Positions 655 to 24,153 of a stretch of DNA of 24,153 nt are shown here, piece by piece. The notes beneath the pieces were generated by a model. The model saw only the letters and a list, made by a program, of their open reading frames with translations. It did not search any database and was not told the origin of the DNA. The position numbers were made by a program, and so were the translations under genes. Location: assembly GCA_025057405.1 (NCBI GenBank), contig JANWXV010000001.1, positions 1 to 24,153 of the forward strand, given 5' to 3'. The stretch comes from Candidatus Bipolaricaulota bacterium (GTDB lineage: Bacteria; Bipolaricaulota; Bipolaricaulia; RBG-16-55-9; DRXL01). Numbering within the stretch: position 1 is the first letter of the stretch; each line of letters begins with the position of its first letter.

Positions 655-1413
655 ATGAAGAGACTTTGGAAGTCGGTCTTAGGCGTTGTCGCGGTGGCGT
701 TTCTGATCGGATTGGCTTCGGTGGGGCAGCAGGCGCCCACGGATGAACAGCTTCTCGAAGCGTTGGACAAAGCGCGCTTTGTCGAGGCCACGTCGTTTAC
801 GATGACGGTCGAAGTCGTGGCTGATAGACCCGATGGCACCAAGCAGGCGGTCGTGCAGCTCTATTTCAAAGAGATCAATAAGAAGCGCTACGCGCGCATC
901 GAGTTCTTAGCTCCCGAAGACCTCAAGGGGCAAGTCTATGTGAGCACTCCTGATGGGGTCTTCTTCTGGCAGCCGGGGCTGGCGACCCCCTTAAAAGTGA
1001 GCGGTCGGCAGCAAGTCTTTGGCGATTCGAGCGTTGCTGAAACCGTAGGCATCCAATTCAAGGGCGACTATAAGATAAGAACCCGAAAAGACGTAACGCT
1101 GCCGGGGAATAGGCCCGCTTGGGAACTCGACCTCGAAGCGACCGACAAGAGTGTAGCGTTTCAGCGGGCGACCGTGACGGCCGAGAGGGCCACGTTGCGC
1201 CCGGTCAGAGCACGACTCTTCGCCCTGAGCGGCGATCCCCTCAACGACGTGAGCTACCAAGAGTACGCTCTTTTAGAGAAAGACGAGTACGTCAAGAAAC
1301 AGCTGATCGAGAATCAGCTCATTAAGACGAACAAGACGCTCTTGACGATCACCAAGATCGAAGCGAAAGATCTCCCGAACGATCTGTTTGACCCCAGCAG
1401 ATTGGGGAAGTGA
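655..1413 (+). CDS. Outer-membrane lipoprotein-sorting (LolA-like) periplasmic protein
   Basis: AAGGAG SD upstream. The protein has an N-terminal signal peptide (MKRLWKSVLGVVAVAFLIGLASVG) and a beta-rich body with EFLAPEDLKG and RQQVFGDSS segments resembling LolA-like sorting proteins that follow LolE-type permeases. Confidence 0.75.
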   Translation: MKRLWKSVLGVVAVAFLIGLASVGQQAPTDEQLLEALDKARFVEATSFTMTVEVVADRPDGTKQAVVQLYFKEINKKRYARIEFLAPEDLKGQVYVSTPDGVFFWQPGLATPLKVSGRQQVFGDSSVAETVGIQFKGDYKIRTRKDVTLPGNRPAWELDLEATDKSVAFQRATVTAERATLRPVRARLFALSGDPLNDVSYQEYALLEKDEYVKKQLIENQLIKTNKTLLTITKIEAKDLPNDLFDPSRLGK

Positions 1414-3011
1414 GCGACGTGCGCGTGCGATGGGCGCTGGGAGCGTTGCTCTTGAGTGTAGCTGCGATGGGCCAGGAGGCCCCATCGCTCGATAGACTTG
1501 TAGAGCTGAAGCGCGAGGCGCTCGCGGTCTTCTCGCAGATACTCACAGAGGGGATCGCTGCGGAGCGCCTCAGCGCCGTGAACAGTTTGGTTCGCAACGG
1601 CGACGACTCGGTTGTTCTGTTGCTCGCGGAGCGTTTGCTTAACGATGAAGCCTCGTTTGTGCGGCGAGGGGCGGCTGTTGGGCTGGGGCGCTTTCGCTCA
1701 CAAGAGGCGCAAAGAGCCTTGCGTCGCGCTGCGCTCTCTGATGAGATCGCCAGCATTCGTTGGGACGCGGCGCTCTCGTTGAAAGATTCTGACGTCATTC
1801 TCGCGCTGCTGAGCCAGCGCGAGACGCTGGCAGCGGCGGCGCTCTCGCTGCAAGAGTCGGCAGCGCGTCTGCCGGGGGCGATCTGGCCCTCGGTGGAAGT
1901 CGCGTTGCTGCGTGCGTTTCCCGATGGCGAGAGCTTTAACGTCGTCGAGCGCGCCGCGATGCTGAAAGCGTTGGCACAGCTTGGCTCGCTCGGCGCTGTA
2001 GATCGTCTCCGTGCGACCCTCGCTGATAGCCAAGAAGACCCGTTTGTGCGCGGCGCCGCGGCGTTTGCGCTGGGAGTGCTGGGCGTGCGCAACGCCGTGC
2101 CGGAGCTGATTTCAGCATTGCGCACAGAGTCTGATTCGATACAAGTCGGAGCAGCGACGGCTTTGGGATATCTGCGCGAGCCAAGCGCCGTTGAGCCGCT
2201 AATCGCGCTTTTACAGACGGGGCGCTCGCCACAGGCGCGCGTGGCCGCGGCCGAAGCCCTCGGGGCCTTTGGCTCGCGAGCTGCTTCGGCTCTCGCGCAA
2301 GCGCTCTTGACCGATCCCGGCCCAACGGTGCGCCAAGCGGCTCTGCGCGGGCTTGCCCAGACCAGAAGCGCCGAGGCGACTCAAGCCGTGTTCGCGTTCT
2401 TACAGAGCGGGTATCTGCAAGGCTGCGATCCGAGCGCGTGCGGGAGCTTAGCGCTGGAGACGCTGCGCGCTCTCGCGACGCTCGGCCAAGCGCAGCTGGC
2501 CCTGCAAGTGGCGCAAGCGACGCTCAACGCCCTGCGCGAGGCGCTTCCGTTTCTCTTTGTCTTCGCCGAACTGGACTTGGTGAGAACCCTAAGCGCGGTG
2601 GGGCGGGTCGCGCCAGAGCTGTTTGACGCGCTGGTGCGCGACCAAAGTCCGTTTGTGCGTGCGCTGGGGGTTGCTGCTTATGCGAGCGTCTATCAAGCCG
2701 AAGCGCGAGCGACGCTTCTTCGATATGTCTCCGACGAGAATACGTTGGTGCGTCGGGCTGCGCTGGAAGGGCTGGCTCCGTGGGCCACCTCGGACGACAC
2801 CGAGCTGTTCGCTCGGTTTGTCACCAACAGCGATCCGCGCACTCGTGTCGCAGCGCTCTCGGCCCTGGCGCGCGCGGGCGATGCGCGGGCGCTCGTGCCG
2901 TTGCGTCAGGCCCTGAACGCTCAAAGCTCTTCGGTCCGTCTAGACGCTGCCGGTGCCGCCTTGGCCTTTGCGATCCGCTGGAGCAAAACCCCTTCGTCCT
3001 CTGTGCCTTAG
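1410..3011 (+). CDS. HEAT/PBS-lyase-like repeat protein with probable signal peptide
   Basis: GTGA overlap with the upstream stop. Multiple repeats such as VRRGAAVGLG, VRGAAAFALG, ARVAAAEALG, VRQAALRGLA, VRRAALEGLA and TRVAALSALA. Hydrophobic N-terminus ending AAMG-Q. Confidence 0.85.
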   Translation: MSDVRVRWALGALLLSVAAMGQEAPSLDRLVELKREALAVFSQILTEGIAAERLSAVNSLVRNGDDSVVLLLAERLLNDEASFVRRGAAVGLGRFRSQEAQRALRRAALSDEIASIRWDAALSLKDSDVILALLSQRETLAAAALSLQESAARLPGAIWPSVEVALLRAFPDGESFNVVERAAMLKALAQLGSLGAVDRLRATLADSQEDPFVRGAAAFALGVLGVRNAVPELISALRTESDSIQVGAATALGYLREPSAVEPLIALLQTGRSPQARVAAAEALGAFGSRAASALAQALLTDPGPTVRQAALRGLAQTRSAEATQAVFAFLQSGYLQGCDPSACGSLALETLRALATLGQAQLALQVAQATLNALREALPFLFVFAELDLVRTLSAVGRVAPELFDALVRDQSPFVRALGVAAYASVYQAEARATLLRYVSDENTLVRRAALEGLAPWATSDDTELFARFVTNSDPRTRVAALSALARAGDARALVPLRQALNAQSSSVRLDAAGAALAFAIRWSKTPSSSVP

Positions 3012-3012
3012 T

Positions 3013-3474
3013 ATGCCCAAGATTTATAAGCTTTCGCGCACCCAAGTCGTGCCCGCGGATCTCGATAGAGTCTGGGAGTTCTTCGCCACGCCGCGCAACT
3101 TGAACGAGCTGACCCCGCCAGAGATGCACTTTGCTATTCTCTCAGGAGCGCAGGAGCCGATGTACACGGGGCAGCTCATCGAGTATCGGATTCGGCTTGT
3201 GCCCGGCGTTGTCGTCTCGTGGCTGACGGAGATCGTTCACGTCGAGCCGAAACGTCGTTTCATTGACGAGCAACGCTTTGGCCCCTATCAATTTTGGTAC
3301 CACGAGCATCGCTTCGAGCCGACCCAAGACGGAACGCGCATCGAAGACCACGTCACGTACGCGTTGCCCCTTGGAATAATCGGCGAGATGATGCACGCGC
3401 TTTGGGTGCGCCCGCGCCTAGAAGCGATCTTTGACTTTCGCGCGCACGCGATAGCCAAGATCTTTCCCGCCTAA
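3013..3474 (+). CDS. SRPBCC (START-like/polyketide cyclase) family protein
   Basis: ATG 3013, 1 nt after the previous stop. [18 protein letters not shown] and [19 protein letters not shown] are typical of this SRPBCC subfamily. The ORF-track start at 2953 is rejected. Confidence 0.85.
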
Positions 3475-3914
3475 AGACGAATCGGGGTAGGGTTCTGAAT
3501 CTGATGGGGATGCTCCGGCCCCGGATAGATCTTCAGTTTCTTGAGCATCCGGCGCCCTAGGACAGTCTTAGGGAGCATATTGCGCACGGCTTCTTCTAAC
3601 GGCTTAGCGGGATGGCGCTCGATCATCTCCGAGAACGTCCACGAGCGTAGCCCCCCCGGATAACGCGAATAGTGATAATAGATCTTCTGTTCGGGCTTCT
3701 TCCCCGTCAGTTTGATCTCTTTGGCGTTGATGACCACGACGTAGTCGCCCACGTCTACGTGAGGAGTATAGCTGGGCTTGTGCTTGCCCATGAGAATCTT
3801 AGCGATCTGGGAGGCCAAGCGCCCCAGCGTCTTACCGCGGGCATCTACCACCACCCAGTTGCGCTGAAAGCGCTTATTTAAATCTTCTCTTTTCATCAAG
3901 GTCGTATGCTGCAT
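3471..3914 (-). CDS. rplM: 50S ribosomal protein uL13
   Basis: [40 protein letters not shown] and YPGG motifs. AAGGAG SD. Confidence 0.98.
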
Positions 3915-3983
3915 AAGAGTTCTCCTTCTCTATAATAAATTCTAAAGCAAAGCGACCGGTTGCATGGGCGCTGAGAATATGCT

Positions 3984-4012
3984 ATCATAGCACAACCGGG
4001 AACGTCTTGCAA
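3984..4012 (-). promoter_or_regulatory. sigma70-type promoter for rplM: TTGCAA-N17-TATGAT with extended -10 TG
   Basis: The minus strand reads TTGCAA(4012-4007) gacgttcccggttgtgc TATGAT(3989-3984). The spacer is 17 nt and the context is TGnTATGAT. Confidence 0.7.
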
Positions 4013-4023
4013 AGAAGATGCCC

Positions 4024-4052
4024 TTGACGATGCAGGGACGATGGTTTATAAT
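4024..4052 (+). promoter_or_regulatory. sigma70-type promoter for the rpsL...rplQ array: TTGACG-N17-TATAAT
   Basis: TTGACG at 4024-4029, a 17-nt spacer and a perfect TATAAT at 4047-4052. Predicted TSS is about 4059. Confidence 0.85.
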
Positions 4053-4058
4053 AACCCC

Positions 4059-4194
4059 TGCGTTTAGGGGATCGCTTTAACTCTTCGGCTGACGATCTCT
4101 CGCACAATCCATCTCGCCCGGTTGGGAGGTCTCTTCTAGAGAGACCGGACGCGGCGAGCAATGGAGATCAATCGGAATAAGAGGAGCATAGAGT
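4059..4194 (+). promoter_or_regulatory. Structured 5' leader of rpsL (candidate r-protein autoregulatory leader)
   Basis: Nested complementary segments: TCCAT 4108-12/ATGGA 4161-65, CTCGCC 4113-18/GGCGAG 4153-58 and GGTCTCT 4128-34/AGAGACC 4140-46. SD GAGGAG at 4181-86. Confidence 0.45.
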
Positions 4195-4587
4195 ATGCCG
4201 ACGATCAATCAATTGGTGCGCTACGGGCGCACCCAGATCAAGAAGATCAACCGTCGTTCGCTGGCGCTGGGACACTGCCCACAGAAGCGCGGCGTCTGTG
4301 TGCGCGTCTTCACCAAGACGCCGAAAAAGCCCAACTCGGCGCTGCGCAAAGTGGCCCGCGTCCGTTTGAGCAACAAGCAGATGGTCACGGCTTATATCGG
4401 CGGTGAGGGCCATAATCTCCAAGAGCACTCGATGGTCTTGGTGCGCGGCGGGCGCGTGAAAGACTTGCCCGGCGTCAACTATCACATTGTGCGCGGGGCG
4501 CTCGACTGCGCCGGCGTCGAAGGGCGCAAGCGCGGGCGCTCCAAGTACGGGGTGAAGAGTTCGGCCACGGCCGCGCCCGCAAAATAG
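4195..4587 (+). CDS. rpsL: 30S ribosomal protein uS12
   Basis: [30 protein letters not shown] and RVKDLPGV motifs. Confidence 0.99.
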
Positions 4588-4629: not shown

Positions 4630-5109
4630 ATGAATCAGCATCCTATGGAACGCGTCATCCCGGGACGGTATCCGACGCCCGATGTCCGTTACAACAGCAG
4701 AATGGTAGAAAAGCTGATTAATTACGTTACAAAAGAGGGCAAGAAGTCTATAGCTCGCAAGATCGTCTATGAAGCGTTGGATATTCTTAAAGAGAAGACG
4801 GGGGAGCAGCCGTTAGAGGTCTTTTACAAAGCTCTGAACAATCTCATGCCCAAGCTGGAGACGCGCTCGCGCCGCGTCGGCGGTTCGTCGTATCAGATCC
4901 CCTATGAGGTCCCCGAGGAGCGCCAGCGTACGTTAGCGCTGCGGTGGCTCGTCGGGGCTGCGCGCAACCGACGCGAACACTCGATGGCGGCACGCTTGGC
5001 TGCCGAGATGCTCGACGCCCTCAAAAACCAGGGCGAGGCCATCAAAAAACGCGAAGAGACCCACCGCATGGCCGAATCCAACCGCGCCTTCGCCCACTAC
5101 CGTTGGTAG
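4630..5109 (+). CDS. rpsG: 30S ribosomal protein uS7 (alternative start ATG 4645)
   Basis: GKKSIARKIVY, SRRVGGSSYQIP and HRMAESNRAFAHYRW motifs. The start codon is ambiguous. Confidence 0.98.
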   Translation: MNQHPMERVIPGRYPTPDVRYNSRMVEKLINYVTKEGKKSIARKIVYEALDILKEKTGEQPLEVFYKALNNLMPKLETRSRRVGGSSYQIPYEVPEERQRTLALRWLVGAARNRREHSMAARLAAEMLDALKNQGEAIKKREETHRMAESNRAFAHYRW

Positions 5110-5121
5110 GTCGATCCCCCT

Positions 5122-7209
5122 ATGAAAGCCCTCGGATACAACCTCGACAAGATTCGCAACATCGGAGTCATCGCCCACATTGACGCGGGCAAGACGACTA
5201 CTACGGAGCGCTTGCTCTTCTACACCGGGCGGATTCACGATATTGGCGACGTGGACGAGGGCGACACCGAGATGGACTGGATGCCCCAGGAGCGCGAGCG
5301 CGGCATCACGATCACGTCTGCCGCGACAACTTGCTTCTGGCGCGACCATCAGATCAATATCATAGACACCCCCGGTCACGTGGACTTCACCGCCGAGGTC
5401 GAGCGCTCGCTCAGAGTCCTCGACGGGGCTGTGACCGTCTTCTCTGGCGTCGATGGCGTCGAGCCGCAATCCGAACAGGTCTGGCGCCAAGCCGATAAAT
5501 ACGGAACTCCCCGCATCGCGTATATCAATAAAATGGACCGAATCGGCGCTAACTTCAAAGCCGCCGTCGAGTCTATGGTGCAGAAGCTGGGGGTGCGCCC
5601 GCTGCCCTTGCAGTTGCCCTACGGCGAAGGCGACCAGTTCGGCGGCGTCCTAGATCTGATTAAACAGAAGCTTATTATCTGGGACCCAAACTCCAAGGGA
5701 GCCAAGTTCGAATATCGAGAGATCCCCAAGGAGTATCTGGACGACGTCCAAGCCTATCGCGAAAAGATTTTAGAGAGCATCTCCGAAGTGGACGAAGAGA
5801 TTTTAACGAAATTTTTAGAAGGGCAGCCGATCTCGGAGGCCGAGATCCATCGCGGCGTGCGCCAGGCTTGTATTCGCCGAGAGTTTGTGCCCGTCGTCTG
5901 TGGCTCCTCGCTCAACAATATCGGCATTCAGCCGCTCTTAGACGCGATTGTGGACTATCTGCCCAGCCCGCTTGACCGCAGCTTCATCGAGGGCTTAGCG
6001 CCCAACGGCACGGGTGAATCTGCGAAGCAGCAGCGCCGCCCCACCCCCGATGAACCCCTCGCGGCGCTCGCCTTTAAAGTCCAGACCGACGAATACACCG
6101 GGCGCTTGGTCTATGTGCGCGTCTATTCTGGAAAGCTAGAGAAAGGCTCGTATGTCTATAACAGCACCACGGGCAAGACCGAGCGCATCGCCCGCATCTT
6201 TCATATGCACGCCAACAAGCGCACCGAAGTAGACGCCGTCACCGCGGGCAACATCGCGGCGGTCGTCGGCCCTAAAGAGTTGGTCACCGGCGACACGATC
6301 TGTGATCCGGAGAACCCGATTGTGCTGGAGAAGATCGAGTTCCCCGAGCCGGTCGTCACCGCTGCGATTGAACCCAAATCCGACGCCGATGAAGATAGAC
6401 TGAGCGAAGCCCTCTACAAACTCACCCAAGAAGACCCGACCTTCCGATATAACGTAGACCCCGAAACGAATCAGATGGTCATCTCCGGCATGGGGGAGCT
6501 GCACTTAGAGATTATCTTTGACCGTCTGAAGCGGGAGTTCCGCGTCGAAGCGAATATGGGCAATCCCCAGGTGGCCTATCGCGAGACGCTGGCCGAGTCG
6601 GTCGAAGTCGAGGAGAAGTTCGTCAAGCAGACGGGCGGGCGCGGGCAATACGCCCATGTCTGTCTGCGCTTTGAGCCGCTGCCGCGCGGTCAGGGCTTTG
6701 AGTTCGTAGATGAGATCAAGGGGGGGATCATCCCCCGGGAGTTTATCCCCGCGGTGCAGAAGGGCATCGAAGAGTCTCTCTCGAGCGGCCCCTTGGGAGG
6801 ATTCCCGATTGTAGATATTCGCGCTACGCTCTTTTACGGGTCGTATCACGCTGTAGATTCCAGCGAGATCGCCTTCAAGACCGCCGCGGCGCGCGCGCTC
6901 ACCCAAGCCTTCGAGAGGGCGAAAACCCATCTGCTCGAACCCATTATGACCGTCGAGGTCGTCACCCCGGAAGAGTACGTCGGGGAGGTCATTACGGATT
7001 TGCAGTCGCGGCGCTCGCAGATTACTTCTATGGAAGTGCGCAACAACGCTCAGATTATCGAAGCCTTAGTGCCGTTGGCCGAGACGTTTGGCTATGCTAC
7101 GCAGTTGCGCTCGATCTCCCAAGGCCGCGCGTCTTATCACATGCAGTTCTCGCACTACGAGATCGTTCCGGCATCGATTAAAGAAGAAGTCCTGAAGGGG
7201 AGAACGTAA
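5122..7209 (+). CDS. fusA: Elongation factor G
   Basis: [22 protein letters not shown] and NKMD GTPase motifs, plus MGELHL and PQVAYRET. 695 aa. Confidence 0.99.
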
Positions 7210-7210
7210 G

Positions 7211-7519
7211 ATGGCACGAGAGAAGATTCGCATACGATTAAGAGGCTACGATCACGAGCTGGTGGACGATGCGACCCGTAAGATCGTCAAGACCGCCCAA
7301 GAGACACGAGCGAAAGTGATCGGGCCGATCCCGTTGCCCACGGAGATCCATCGCTACACGGTGTTGCGGTCTCCGCACGTCAACAAGAAATCAATGGAGC
7401 ACTTTGAGCGCCGGGTTCATAAGCGCTTGATTGACATCAAAGAGCCGACATCGGAGACGATCAACGCGCTGATGGATATTCAGTTGCCCGCGGGCATTGA
7501 CATCGAGGTGAAGCTGTGA
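7211..7519 (+). CDS. rpsJ: 30S ribosomal protein uS10
   Basis: [18 protein letters not shown] and [14 protein letters not shown] motifs. Confidence 0.99.
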
Positions 7520-18200: not shown

Positions 18201-18995
18201 ATGATTCGTCTGAAGTCCAAAGAAGAGATTGCGATCCTGCGCGAGAACGCCGAGCTGCTTCAGGCGATTCTCTTGCGCTTGACCGAGGAGGCCCGTCCCG
18301 GCGTAGCCACGCTGGAGCTGGATCGCAAGGCCGAGCGCTGGATCGCCGAGATCGGCGGGCGCCCGACGTTCAAGGGCTATCGGGGGTATCCCGCGACGAT
18401 CTGTACATCGCTGAACGCCGAGGTCGTCCACGGGATTCCCAGCGCGCAGCGCCTCTTGAAATCCGGCGATGTTCTCTCTATAGATATAGGAATGATGCGC
18501 AAAGGGTTCTGTGCTGATTTGGCGACTACTGTCTTGATCGGCGATAGCCCGGAGTATGTATATCAGCGTCGGGTGATGCAGCGAGCGGCCGAAGCGCTGC
18601 AGATCGGGATCGAGCAAGCGCGAGCGGGCCAGCGCGTGGGAGATATCTCCAGCGCCATTCAGAGATATATTAACAGTTACGGACTCTCGGTGGTCACGAA
18701 CTTTGTGGGGCACGGCATCGGGCGCGAGATGCACGAAGAACCCCAAGTGCCCAACTACGGGACGGCTGGACAAGGCCCGTTGCTCAAAGAGGGCATGGTG
18801 CTCTGTATCGAACCGATGGTCGCCGACGGCCCCAGCGATCTGTTAGAGATCGAGGTGCTCGAGGACGGCTGGACGGCTCTGGCACCGGGAGCGCGCGTTG
18901 CCGCGCATTATGAAGCGATGGTCTTGGTCACTGCCGAGCCTATCGTTTTGGGTATAGGACTGTTTGAGCCTCAGGCGGCTCTGGTAGCGAGGTGA
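18201..18995 (+). CDS. map: Methionine aminopeptidase type I
   Basis: [27 protein letters not shown] and AHYE metal-ligand motifs. Confidence 0.97.
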
Positions 18996-19002
18996 GGTCT
19001 CT

Positions 19003-19224
19003 ATCAGCAAGGGTGAATTCATTCGCCGGCGGGGGAAGGTACTCGAAGCGTACCCCAACTCGATGTTCAAAGTGAAGCTGGAGGACGGCGGCGAGACGCT
19101 CTGTCACATTTCGGGGCGGATTCGCAAGAATTATATTAAGATTCTGCCCGGCGACACCGTCACGGTGGAGTTTTCGCCCTACGATCTGGAGCACGGACGG
19201 ATTATCTACCGGGAGCGCGAGTAA
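19003..19224 (+). CDS. infA: Translation initiation factor IF-1 with apparent non-canonical ATC start (73 aa)
   Basis: Translation is (I/M)[72 protein letters not shown]. There is an in-frame TAG at 18985-87 and SD GAGGTGA at 18989-95. The gene is absent from the ORF track. Confidence 0.95.
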
Positions 19225-19239
19225 AAGAGGTGTCACGCT

Positions 19240-19356
19240 ATGAAAGTGCGTAGTTCTGTGAGAAAGATGTGCGAGTCGTGCAAGATCGTGCGTCGCCACG
19301 GTCGTATCTTGGTGATTTGCAAGAACCCTAAGCACAAACAGCGTCAGGGGACGTAA
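19240..19356 (+). CDS. rpmJ: 50S ribosomal protein bL36 (Zn-type)
   Basis: [38 protein letters not shown], 38 aa. Confidence 0.98.
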
Positions 19357-19372
19357 GGAGAAGTGAGAAGTT

Positions 19373-19750
19373 ATGGCTCGTATCGCTGGAGTGGATCTGC
19401 CCAGCAACAAGCGCGTGGAGATCGCGCTCACGTATATTTATGGGATTGGTCGCCCGCGGTCGCGCGAGATCCTACAACAGGCACAGATTGACTTCAACAA
19501 GAGAGTCAAAGAGCTGACCGAGCAAGAGATCACGGCGTTGCGCAAAGAGATCGAGGCGAAGTATCAAGTAGAAGGCGACTTGCGTCGCAAGATTCAGAAC
19601 GACATCGCCCGTCTCAAAACGATCAAGTGCTATCGCGGCGTGCGCCACACCGTCGGGCTGCCGGTGCGCGGCCAGAAGACGCGCAGCAACGCCCGAACGT
19701 GGAAAGGCCCGCGCCCGGCCAAGGCCGGCAAGCGCGACAAGGCCAAGTGA
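19373..19750 (+). CDS. rpsM: 30S ribosomal protein uS13
   Basis: [15 protein letters not shown] and [21 protein letters not shown] motifs. Confidence 0.99.
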
Positions 19751-19761
19751 GGAGTTTCGGT

Positions 19762-20100
19762 ATGAGAAAGATTGACCGCGCGAGATTGCACGTGCACTCG
19801 ACGTTCAACAACACGATCTTGACTTTAACGGATTTGGAAGGGCGCGTTTTGGCCTGGGCCAGTCCGGGCACCCGCGGCTTTAAGGGCAGCAAGAAGGGCA
19901 CGCCCTACGCGGCGCAGTTGGCGTGCGAGACGCTGCTGGCCAAGATGAAGGAGATGGGGATTCGCTCGTTGATCGTCACGGTGAACGGAGCCGGCCAAGG
20001 CCGAAACGCCATTGTGAACACGCTCCGAGGCGCGGGAATACGCGTGGAAGATGTCAAGAACGTTACTCCGGTGAGCCACAGCAGCAGCAAGCTGATCTGA
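19762..20100 (+). CDS. rpsK: 30S ribosomal protein uS11, short (112 aa) with divergent C-terminus
   Basis: AGGAG SD at 19750-54. HSTFNNTI and GFKGSKKGTPYAAQ motifs. The protein ends NVTPVSHSSSKLI. Confidence 0.97.
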   Translation: MRKIDRARLHVHSTFNNTILTLTDLEGRVLAWASPGTRGFKGSKKGTPYAAQLACETLLAKMKEMGIRSLIVTVNGAGQGRNAIVNTLRGAGIRVEDVKNVTPVSHSSSKLI

Positions 20101-21691: not shown

Positions 21692-22042
21692 ATGTGGCAT
21701 CGCAAGGGATTTCGCAAGCTCAATCGCGATCCGCAGCATCGCAAGATGATGCTGAAGAATCTCGCCAAGGAGCTGATTGATCACGGCAAGGTGGACACAA
21801 CCGTCGCGCGTGCTAAAGAGAGCGCCCGGCTGGTAGATCACTTGATCACGCTGGCGAAGCGAAACACCCCCTACGCTCGCCGTCAAGCGTTTGCGATTTT
21901 GCAAGACCCCAAACTTACCGATAAGCTTTTCGCCGAGCTTGGCCCCAAGTATATGGGGCGCAGCGGCGGCTACACGCGGGTTCTGAAGCTGCCGCCCCGC
22001 CCCGGCGACGGCGCGGAGTTGGCGCGCCTGACGTGGGTCTAG
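21692..22042 (+). CDS. rplQ: 50S ribosomal protein bL17
   Basis: [24 protein letters not shown] and RPGDGAE motifs. Confidence 0.99.
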
Positions 22043-23004
22043 TGCTTCACGATAAAATCCGAAAAACCCACCGACTTCGTTGGGGTAATTCGGAAGAACG
22101 GGGTCGTATAGCGAACGAGCGCTTGTTTTTGGGGAGTCTCCCCCGCCGTGAAGAACGCTTGCAGCACGAGTTCGTAGTCGGGCGCTAAGAACGTCCTGAA
22201 GAACGGGTCTTTGAAGGGCGCGAACTTAAAGACCGTTCGCACTCTATAGACTGTATATTCTCGTCGTCCGAGCCTGGTCTCCAGCGGGATGCGCTCGGTG
22301 CTGAGGACTTCGGAGCGCGCGCGCGCAAAGGGTTCCTCCCCCCAGCGGATCACTTCGGAGAAGAAGACGTTGTACTCATAAGTTTGTCCCACTTGCAGCG
22401 GCTTGCTGTAGAGATGATAGATCCAATCGTTGTAGGCCATCGCCCGCCCCGGCCAGGGGATCGTGGCTCGGAAGATCCCTTCGTACGTAGGCAAGAGAAT
22501 CTCCATCTGATTGGTATCTACGGGCTTATAATATCCCTCTCCTTGGTAATCAGGGCGGTTGGGGTCAAGAAAATCAAACTTGATGGTGAAGCGCACTTCG
22601 CGCATGGTGAAGTCTGGGTGGAGAAAGTTGTACCAGTCGGTCGTGATGACGTTACCGGCTCGCACTTCAACGACTTGATGGAGCCTGAGGCCCTGAGGCC
22701 CTTGTAGAATGCGATCCGTGCTGATAGCTACGCCGTTGAGGTCTTCGTAGCGTAGCCAGCGGGGATAGGGGTCTTGTTTATCGTTGAGGCCGTCCTCGTC
22801 GGTGTCGGCTTTGGTGGGAATAGTAAAATAGACGAAATACTCTTCGCCGTCGAGCAGGCCATCGCCGTCGGTATCGGGTTTGTTCGGGTCGGTGCCCAAG
22901 ATTCGCTCTTGGGCATCGGTTAGCCCGTCGTTGTCGGCGTCTTGGGCAACGGCATCTAGGGCCAGCAGCGCGGTGATGAGCGCTAGAGTTAAGAGAATGC
23001 GCAT
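22039..23004 (-). CDS. Secreted hypothetical protein with three thrombospondin type 3-like Ca-binding (DxDxDG) repeats and an unassigned beta-rich C-terminal region
   Basis: AGGAGG SD and a signal peptide ending AVA-Q. Repeats are [24 protein letters not shown] and [12 protein letters not shown]. Confidence 0.8.
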
Positions 23005-23025: not shown

Positions 23026-23085
23026 GAATGTCATTCTGAGCGCAGCGAAGGGTCTCGATTCTTCGCTGCGCTCAGGGTGACATTC
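23026..23085. repeat. REP-like palindrome (TGTCATTCTGAGCGCAGCGAAG type): 25-bp arms, 10-nt loop
   Basis: GAATGTCATTCTGAGCGCAGCGAAG (23026-50) pairs with CTTCGCTGCGCTCAGGGTGACATTC (23061-85). The only two mismatches are T.G wobbles on the + strand. Confidence 0.8.
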
Positions 23086-24153
23086 GGTCCGGTCTTGGAG
23101 CAACTCTCGCCCGGCCTTCAGTCGACCTCTCCCTTGCAGGGAGAGGGCTGGGTGAGGGTGAAAAGTTCCCGTCTAACCCCACGTCAACGCTCTCCCATCG
23201 TGAGCGAACGCTCGCTAGAACAGAGATCAGCGCGGGGAAGAAGAGCACAGTGGCCACAAACGCATACGAGACGGCCAATCCGACCAAGAGTCCGAACGCG
23301 CGGTTCCAGGTGATCGTAGCGGCCAAGAGCACAAAGAAGGCCGAAGCCGTCGTGACGAACGACGCAAACAGCGCTTCGCCGGTGCGGGCCGTCGCTTTGA
23401 CCAGATCGCGCTCTTCGAGGAATCTCTGCAACAGATGCACGGCATAGTCCACCCCCAACCCGATGCTGATCGCCGCGACGATGGCCGTCGCGGCGTTCAG
23501 TTCTAAGCGCAGCAGCATGACCGTCCCCAAGAGCAACCCCGTCGTCAGCGTCATGGGGAAGAGCGTCGCTGCTCCCCAAAGCGCTGATCTCAAGATAAGC
23601 GCCATGACGACAAAACAAAGCCCGAACGCTACGATCAGCGATTGCACGAACGACTGACGGAGTGTCTCCAACCCCAGCTCTTCCAGATAGGGCACCCCGG
23701 TCAGTTCGACAGAGAGACCCAAGGCTTGGAGCTTGGCGATCACGGGTTCGAGACGTTCAGCTATATCTTGGGTGACGCGCGCGATCCCGGCTTGATCGGC
23801 AAAGCGCATCGTGTTGACGCGCACGACCGCAAGACCCTCTGAAATATACATTTCAGCTCGCCAGCGCAGCGACTCTTGCGCAAAGATCTCAGATATTATC
23901 CAGCGATAAGCCGCGTCGGGGTCTTCGACAAAGCGCTCTAGAAAGCCTTGCGACAGTGGGGGATGAGCCGCGCGCACGTCGTCAATATAGTGCGCGATGC
24001 TCGTCACCTTGTGCGCATAGGGCGAAGCGCCAAGGGCCTCGGGGATCTCTTTGAGCAAGAGCCTCATCACGCCGAAGCGCACGATATCGCCCTTCAGTAA
24101 GATCTGAACTTCGTCATACGTTCTGAACTCGTCGTTGATCTGGTCGTAGAGCC
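23072..24153 (-). CDS. MMPL/RND-family transporter permease (5' truncated by window edge)
   Basis: The frame stays open from the window end (..LYDQINDEFRTYDEVQILLKGDIV..), so the track start at 24082 is not the true start. SIGLGVDYAVH RND/MMPL motif and multiple TM helices. Confidence 0.88.
   Translation of the reverse strand, partial: LYDQINDEFRTYDEVQILLKGDIVRFGVMRLLLKEIPEALGASPYAHKVTSIAHYIDDVRAAHPPLSQGFLERFVEDPDAAYRWIISEIFAQESLRWRAEMYISEGLAVVRVNTMRFADQAGIARVTQDIAERLEPVIAKLQALGLSVELTGVPYLEELGLETLRQSFVQSLIVAFGLCFVVMALILRSALWGAATLFPMTLTTGLLLGTVMLLRLELNAATAIVAAISIGLGVDYAVHLLQRFLEERDLVKATARTGEALFASFVTTASAFFVLLAATITWNRAFGLLVGLAVSYAFVATVLFFPALISVLASVRSRWESVDVGLDGNFSPSPSPLPARERSTEGRARVAPRPDRMSP
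23104..23158. repeat. Second REP-like palindrome (CCCTCACCC/CCCTCTCCC-GGGAGAGG type) inside the 3' end of the MMPL CDS
   Basis: Inner stem CCTCTCCCT 23126-34/AGGGAGAGG 23138-46. Outer stem CTCTCGCCCGG 23104-14/CTGGGTGAGGG 23148-58, fully paired with three G.T wobbles on the + strand. Confidence 0.7.

Follow-up and report, generated by a model that had tools for sequence, protein, structure and literature searches.

The window, a 24,153-nucleotide stretch of DNA, contains the S10-spc-alpha cluster of a Bipolaricaulota (Acetothermia) genome, with rplM on the minus strand together with rpsL to rplQ. It is one contig (C111) of a source assembly of 0.92 Mb that is 75% complete, and its closest uS11 relatives are Acetothermia, Bipolaricaulota and Fraserbacteria records with 83–96% identity. 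The original prediction had placed a series of oddities bearing on translation initiation at positions 18985–20100; infA and rpsK are indeed found there, and rpsG and rplM lie elsewhere in the window (Table 1). In-group genomes were split into families labelled f1–f11, where f1 is the family of the source genome and forms a clade nested among f2–f5 in a tree of 2333 columns. As no 16S rRNA gene or infC was found in the 75%-complete source assembly, both were read from relatives instead.

Table 1. Positions of the features discussed in the text
Feature	Position	Strand	Remarks
rplM (uL13)	3471..3914	−	Divergent from rpsL, without rpsI
rpsG (uS7)	4630..5109	+	N-terminal basic arm replaced (codons 1–12, 4630–4665)
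In-frame TAG upstream of infA	18985..18987	+	Excludes any upstream canonical start
Shine-Dalgarno of infA	18989..18997	+	Strong; contains map TGA stop (18993–18995)
infA (IF1)	19003..19224	+	73 aa; ATC start codon; T at −1; Pfam eIF-1a
IF1 residues 8–10	19024..19032	+	RRR; basic version of strand 1
rpmJ (bL36)	19240..19356	+	Context; T at −1
rpsM (uS13)	19373..19750	+	Context; basic C-tail retained; T at −1
rpsK (uS11)	19762..20100	+	112 aa; trimmed at both ends
C-terminus of uS11	20080..20100	+	Short non-conserved end in place of Asn119-Gly120 isoaspartate motif and basic tail

Several further features of the cluster were noted. The gene fusA abuts rpsJ with no tuf between them (7209–7211), rpsE abuts rplO with no rpmD between (15622–15619), and uL15, uL6 and uS5 carry low-complexity extensions. 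The flanks encode a HEAT-repeat protein downstream of a LolA-like gene (1410–3011), a TSP3-repeat protein (22039–23004, minus strand) and an MMPL-family fragment (23072–24151, minus strand). Metatranscriptome contigs from relatives with about 88% identity span the region; start sites and transcript levels cannot be read from contigs of this kind.

The start codon of infA

The infA product was identified as IF1 by its match to PF01176 (eIF-1a/IF1 OB domain; residues 10–70, E 1.2e-24). Its reading frame begins with ATC behind a strong Shine-Dalgarno (SD) sequence. There is an in-frame TAG six codons upstream of the ATC, no ATG, GTG or TTG occurs between this stop and Met21, and initiation at Met21, the next canonical start, would delete the first strand of the domain. 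The upstream stop, the placement of the SD and the extent of the domain thus bear out the ATC start that had been proposed for this gene. Operon-linked infA genes start with ATT or ATC in 15/15 cases in f1 and 6/6 in f2, always 5–8 bases after a strong SD, and in nine of these 21 genes an in-frame stop lies 2–8 codons upstream (two or three codons in genomes G030 and G147). The two codons interchange among the 21 genomes without reversion to a canonical start. From these sequences, we regard the ATT/ATC start of infA in the two families as a solid prediction.

Other families show different starts. In f6 the infA start is TTG in 18 of 19 genes, f7 and f9 have either a GTG at a long distance from the SD or a GTA or GTC closer to it, and in f3 the start appears to be GTC or GTA. 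ATG was found only in f8 and f10, with long spacing or a weak SD. Other genes of the operon start with ATG in 77–100% of cases. All 305 operon starts placed in f1 were ATG or GTG; the start caller allowed canonical codons only, yet it placed 30–31 of the 31 genes. A scan of the source genome for further ATT or ATC starts gave no other convincing case. Many f1 and f2 genomes also encode a second, divergent IF1 paralogue with an ATG or GTG start, and an operon-linked infA is missing in eight genomes, all of which have a truncated uS11. The lengths of related IF1 entries in public sets lie between 51 and 85 residues, a spread that fits miscalled starts.

In relatives, infC starts with ATC or ATA, which is normal for this gene. 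IF3, aided by IF1, rejects non-canonical starts, and infC is autoregulated in this way (PMC5499595). The presence of weak infA starts in almost all other relatives suggests a feedback like that of infC, and IF1 may accordingly be subject to a start-codon feedback loop of its own. The resemblance to infC lies in a strong SD followed by a conserved ATT/ATC start on the gene of an initiation factor, and in the role of IF1 as a helper of IF3 (PMC5499595); the difference is that here the codon is found on infA as well as on infC, and that regulation is putative. The sequence features expected of an infC-type gene, namely a conserved AUU or AUC start with a strong SD and rarity of such starts in other genes, were both found for infA. 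A literature search retrieved no earlier report of an ATT or ATC start on infA, and a conserved AUU/AUC start on IF1 is apparently unreported.

IF1 had also been described as altered in charge. Residues 8–10 are RRR here and EMQ in E. coli, and in operon-linked IF1 proteins position 8 is Arg or Lys, as is position 10 in most of them, and this is balanced elsewhere in the protein. The net charge in f1 (+3.1) matches that of 39 outgroup IF1 proteins (+3.7). Strand 1 is basic, but by redistribution of charge and not by a change in its total. No literature on residues 8–10 was retrieved.

Changes in the 30S platform and neck

The uS11 encoded in the window ends with SSSKLI after the His equivalent to H118 of E. 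coli, in place of NGCRPPKKRRV, and its N-terminus is shorter by about 12 residues as well. The Asn-Gly motif was absent from uS11 in 86/86 in-group genomes, representing all 11 families, and was kept at 46/46 outgroup loci; some families have short new ends, such as KGRR in f7. YbeY was found in 0/99 in-group genomes. With no Asn119-Gly120 in uS11 and no YbeY in the genome (75% complete), the source organism belongs with the lineages lacking both YbeY and the uS11 isoaspartate. bS21 was likewise found above the Pfam cut-off in 0/99 in-group genomes; since it was also missing from 4 of 10 control bacteria, its absence may predate the phylum.

Truncation of uS11 and loss of YbeY in Bipolaricaulota have already been described by Xue et al. 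(bioRxiv 10.64898/2026.08.26.747336), and in the available part of that preprint the phylum, the truncation after H118 and the absence of YbeY are the same as those seen here. Relative to that part, our analysis adds the 16S 715/718 change, the absence of bS21 in the phylum, the uS7 arm and IF1. According to the published accounts, H118 is stacked on purine 718, while residue 119 packs against 716–718 and touches bS21 (bioRxiv 10.64898/2026.08.26.747336; PMC7550191). In a survey of the 675:715 pair, 2065 bacteria had A:A and a single one had A:U (PMC7550191 supplement). In the Bipolaricaulota, position 718 is C in 47/47 16S genes and position 715 is a base other than A, mostly U, in 41/47; all 30 outgroup genes have a purine at 718 and A at 715. 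These two positions fall exactly in the pocket of the lost motif, which indicates that the pocket changed together with the tail. The change may represent compensation or relaxed selection. No report of a matching rRNA change was found in our literature search, and this rRNA counterpart of the loss of the uS11 tail is apparently unreported. Diagnostic 16S changes at first seemed to cluster in h23 (p 0.004), but this was overstated, as 677, 684 and 707 also vary in Thermotogota, and only 715 and 718 were retained as diagnostic.

Other 16S changes were observed alongside these. All 47 Bipolaricaulota 16S genes, and none of the 30 outgroup genes, carry A1080G as well as U20C with A915G, two changes that compensate each other within the central pseudoknot (E. 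coli numbering). Three relatives (G023, G001 and G002) have C1192U opposite G1064, a base change known from E. coli as an allele for spectinomycin resistance. Helix 44 has a much shortened tip (about 1440–1460) in relatives, most strongly in f1, and bS20 is still encoded.

The N-terminus of uS7 has PMER where others carry PR[RK][GR]. Throughout the phylum the basic N-terminal arm is gone (70/70), with an IPGR-type N-terminus in 69 genomes and none at all in one. The 1380 region of 16S rRNA probably contacts this arm, and U1381A and C1383U are fixed in Bipolaricaulota (A1381 in 47/47, versus 0/30 outgroups). Given such a contact, a link between the two is plausible; the literature search retrieved nothing on a connection between uS7 and U1381. 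A1381 and U1383 are also shared by unrelated divergent 16S sequences, several of them Patescibacteria-like with an altered anti-SD, whose uS7 is not visible; those that cover h23 retain A715 and A718.

The gene for uS9, rpsI, is not beside rplM but on another contig (C201), behind an unrelated ORF of a 425-aa type. At 30/30 uS9 loci no uL13 was present within 1.5 kb upstream, a few of these regions stopping at a contig edge. The C-terminal SKR of uS9, its P-site tail, is kept, so that the unlinking of uS9 and uL13 reads as a change of gene order that leaves the P-site tail unaffected. Most families have an N-terminal extension of uS9 with a conserved RLPK motif, which is absent in several f6 genera, and among the regions fetched rplM is divergent from rpsL (3471–4195) only in f1. 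All three ribosomal protein anomalies of the original prediction, a tailless uS11, an altered uS7 N-terminus and a uS9 uncoupled from uL13, were therefore confirmed.

Start-site context and the initiation machinery

In the window, T precedes the start codon at 24 of 33 operon starts. Genome-wide, T was found at −1 of 91 of 169 unambiguous ATG starts (54%) chosen without regard to the −1 base, compared with 24% T at positions −3 to −6 (p 1.6e-16); of all genomic ATGs, 17% are preceded by T. The −1 T start rule that had been proposed is therefore a real bias, but not a rule. In f1 as a whole it reaches 59% (181/305 starts; 47–74% per genome) against a background of 26%. Elsewhere in the phylum, T at −1 amounts to 12–15% in f3 and f6–f9, 25% in f2, 30% in the single f10 genome (background 33%) and 17–32% in eight further genomes; f2, f4 and f5 may have a mild excess. 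Because the preference is restricted to the nested f1 while all families have a truncated uS11, its distribution marks it as a late, family-level addition confined to f1. The unrelated Brevinematales, whose uS11 tail and uS7 arm are normal, have T at −1 in 70% of starts.

Several candidate correlates of the −1 T were rejected. Compensation for weak SDs was ruled out, since in the source genome T at −1 precedes 47% of starts with a weak SD and 63% of those with a strong one. A special initiator tRNA was ruled out as well: the anticodon arm is uniform, base 1 does not track with −1 T, and Fmt is present. Ser83 in the uS7 hairpin is mixed in f1 and present in f4 and f5, and the only f1-specific candidate in IF3, Tyr70 to Phe, is shared by other families.

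Pairing of U(−1) with A37 of tRNA-fMet has been demonstrated in E. coli by compensatory mutation (PMC10018350), and by analogy it is the likely basis of the −1 T; its action here is inferred. Common to both cases are U at −1 and A37 in the initiator tRNA; in E. coli the quadruplet pairing is an experimental effect (PMC10018350), whereas here there is a bias of 54–59% in one family with the tRNA unchanged. In addition, C is enriched at −2 (43% of ATG starts genome-wide, 50% in f1 operons), giving CT-ATG, and pairing with A38 of the tRNA does not explain this. Across unrelated lineages, Brevinematales among them, T at −1 was seen in 48–75% of ribosomal-operon starts, and T at −2 and −3 in Brevinematales is just 9–17%.

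The remainder of the initiation machinery is canonical. All 47 16S genes read from relatives have an intact anti-SD, and in these genes G530, A790, G926, G966, G1338, A1339, C1400, A1492 and A1493 are invariant. The three G-C pairs of the initiator tRNA and an anticodon loop with an invariant A37 were present in every genome matched, and the anticodon arm of tRNA-fMet is identical across the phylum. Base 1 of this tRNA is T (U1-A72) in the source genome (contig C11, 8053–8128, minus strand), where C is usual; it is T or C in f1, and A opposite A72 at all 21 f6 loci. Fmt, IF2, RsmA, Era, bS18 and bS20 were present in 5/5 genomes tested and RbfA in 4/5, so that no loss of RsmA, Era, RbfA, bS18 or bS20 was seen, and IF3 was found in 148 of 151. 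A hairpin covering the anti-SD at the 16S 3′ end is not specific, as it is also found in Bacillota, Caldisericota and Petrotoga outgroups. Thus infB, infC, rpsI, rpsU, rpsR, the 16S 3′ end and tRNA-fMet, which the original prediction had singled out for inspection, are canonical or present, except that bS21 (rpsU) was not found.

In each family, 80–99% of operon genes showed SD-like pairing, but the start caller scored SDs and so overstates this share. Among the 169 unbiased genome-wide starts, purines peak between −13 and −8, and pairing reaches −8 kcal/mol or better in only 74. Bipolaricaulota ribosomes thus appear to find their starts in the ordinary Shine-Dalgarno way.

Traits of different evolutionary depth

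The oddities were originally proposed to form one integrated system, in which an extended interaction with fMet-tRNA, here read as pairing of U(−1) with its A37, substitutes for platform contacts in start selection. The remodelling of platform and neck does co-occur throughout the phylum (uS11, uS7, YbeY, bS21 and 16S); the proposed mechanism did not hold up. All the traits are found together in the source genome and its family, the −1 T bias is strong, the ATT/ATC starts of infA and most of those of infC in f1 have T at −1, and in E. coli bS21 is anchored near the SD helix by the uS11 isoaspartate. Phylogenetic co-distribution fails, however: T at −1 occurs at 59% in f1 and 12–32% elsewhere, although uS11 is truncated in all families. 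The bias also accompanies intact platforms in Brevinematales and is higher at strong than at weak SDs, five of the six ATC starts of f2 infA lack it, and ATT/ATC starts have not spread to other genes. Replacement of platform contacts by tRNA pairing is not supported, because the anti-SD, the P-site nucleotides and the anticodon arm of tRNA-fMet are canonical, as is the uS9 tail. We consider this mechanism very unlikely. The suggested likeness in kind to the Bacteroidetes system fails. Bacteroidetes sequester the anti-SD through bS21, bS18 and bS6, bS21 being required, and lack SDs in nearly all genes, most of those for ribosomal proteins included (PMC7797042). A lineage-specific platform change with a canonical anti-SD (47/47 here) is common to both, but SDs are common here, and bS21, a part of the Bacteroidetes pocket, is missing from all 99 genomes.

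The changes could instead be independent idiosyncrasies fixed on a long stem branch, with the weak infA start only lowering IF1 relative to the co-transcribed ribosomal proteins. Such a history is compatible with the fixed 16S changes far from uS11 (U20C/A915G and A1080G), the lack of bS21 in some control bacteria, the several different weak-start forms of infA, and the eight genomes with truncated uS11 and no operon infA, but it is unlikely, given that the 715/718 changes, hardly ever seen elsewhere, fall exactly in the pocket that held the lost motif, and that ATT and ATC, codons policed by IF3, interchange in 21 genomes with no canonical reversion. It is also rather improbable that a lineage-specific protein or extension, for instance the uS9 N-terminal RLPK or the new uS7 N-terminus, fills the groove of the uS11 tail. 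The basic tail is near-universal, yet 16S positions 795–797, 1506 and 1523 stay conserved, most families have the conserved basic uS9 extension, and the f7 uS11 regained its short KGRR end; against this, a search for a relocated tail peptide found no tail-like motif elsewhere in six frames of the source genome (75% complete), the operon has no room for a small ORF, and several f6 genera lack the uS9 motif.

By their distribution, the oddities are all real but of different evolutionary depth, and do not make up one start-selection system. The explanation we favour, and consider probable as a whole, has three layers. At the phylum stem, the 30S platform would have been simplified: a lineage lacking bS21 presumably lost YbeY along with its substrate, the Asn-Gly tail of uS11, and the h23 pocket in which this tail sits was altered (A718C, mostly A715U). 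In parallel, the basic arm of uS7 would have been lost and 16S 1381/1383 changed. These changes are expected to bear on structure and assembly, while starts would still be selected as before, through SD–anti-SD pairing. In a second layer, infA would have come under a weak start almost throughout the phylum (ATT/ATC, TTG, or a GTG or ATG far from the SD). In the order of the source genome, ATT/ATC may tie IF1 synthesis to the strictness of IF3 (with IF1) against non-canonical starts, the feedback known for infC, itself ATC/ATA-started here. In a third and later layer, f1 alone would have acquired a preference for U at −1, pairing with A37 of an unchanged initiator tRNA serving as an added boost. 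The infA start appears independent of the other two layers, because −1 T is missing from most f2 ATC starts and the operon contains no infA in eight genomes with truncated uS11. From the observed sequences and their distribution we infer causal co-evolution in the first layer, feedback in the second and pairing in the third. One phylum stem counts as one evolutionary event, so co-occurrence by itself cannot prove the coupling of the first-layer traits, and the weak infA starts could be mere dosage control.

The phylum-wide remodelling of the platform is real and partly published. All three domains of life conserve the uS11 tail with its isoaspartate, and a phylum without the motif, the enzyme and the rRNA pocket, yet with SD-led initiation, represents a natural deletion experiment, with A718C, A715U and the absence of bS21 as candidate compensating changes. 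It is quite possible, if somewhat short of probable, that this is the only known ribosome to have abandoned the uS11 isoaspartate tail, its rRNA pocket (purine 718 and A675:A715) and the basic arm of uS7 together, with a start-codon stringency loop on IF1 added in the order of the source genome. IF1 entries in public sets possibly have miscalled starts, which is of relevance to annotation. The conserved AUU/AUC start of infA would bring IF1, alongside IF3, under start-codon feedback and, if the loop operates, would make it the second initiation factor with feedback of the infC type.
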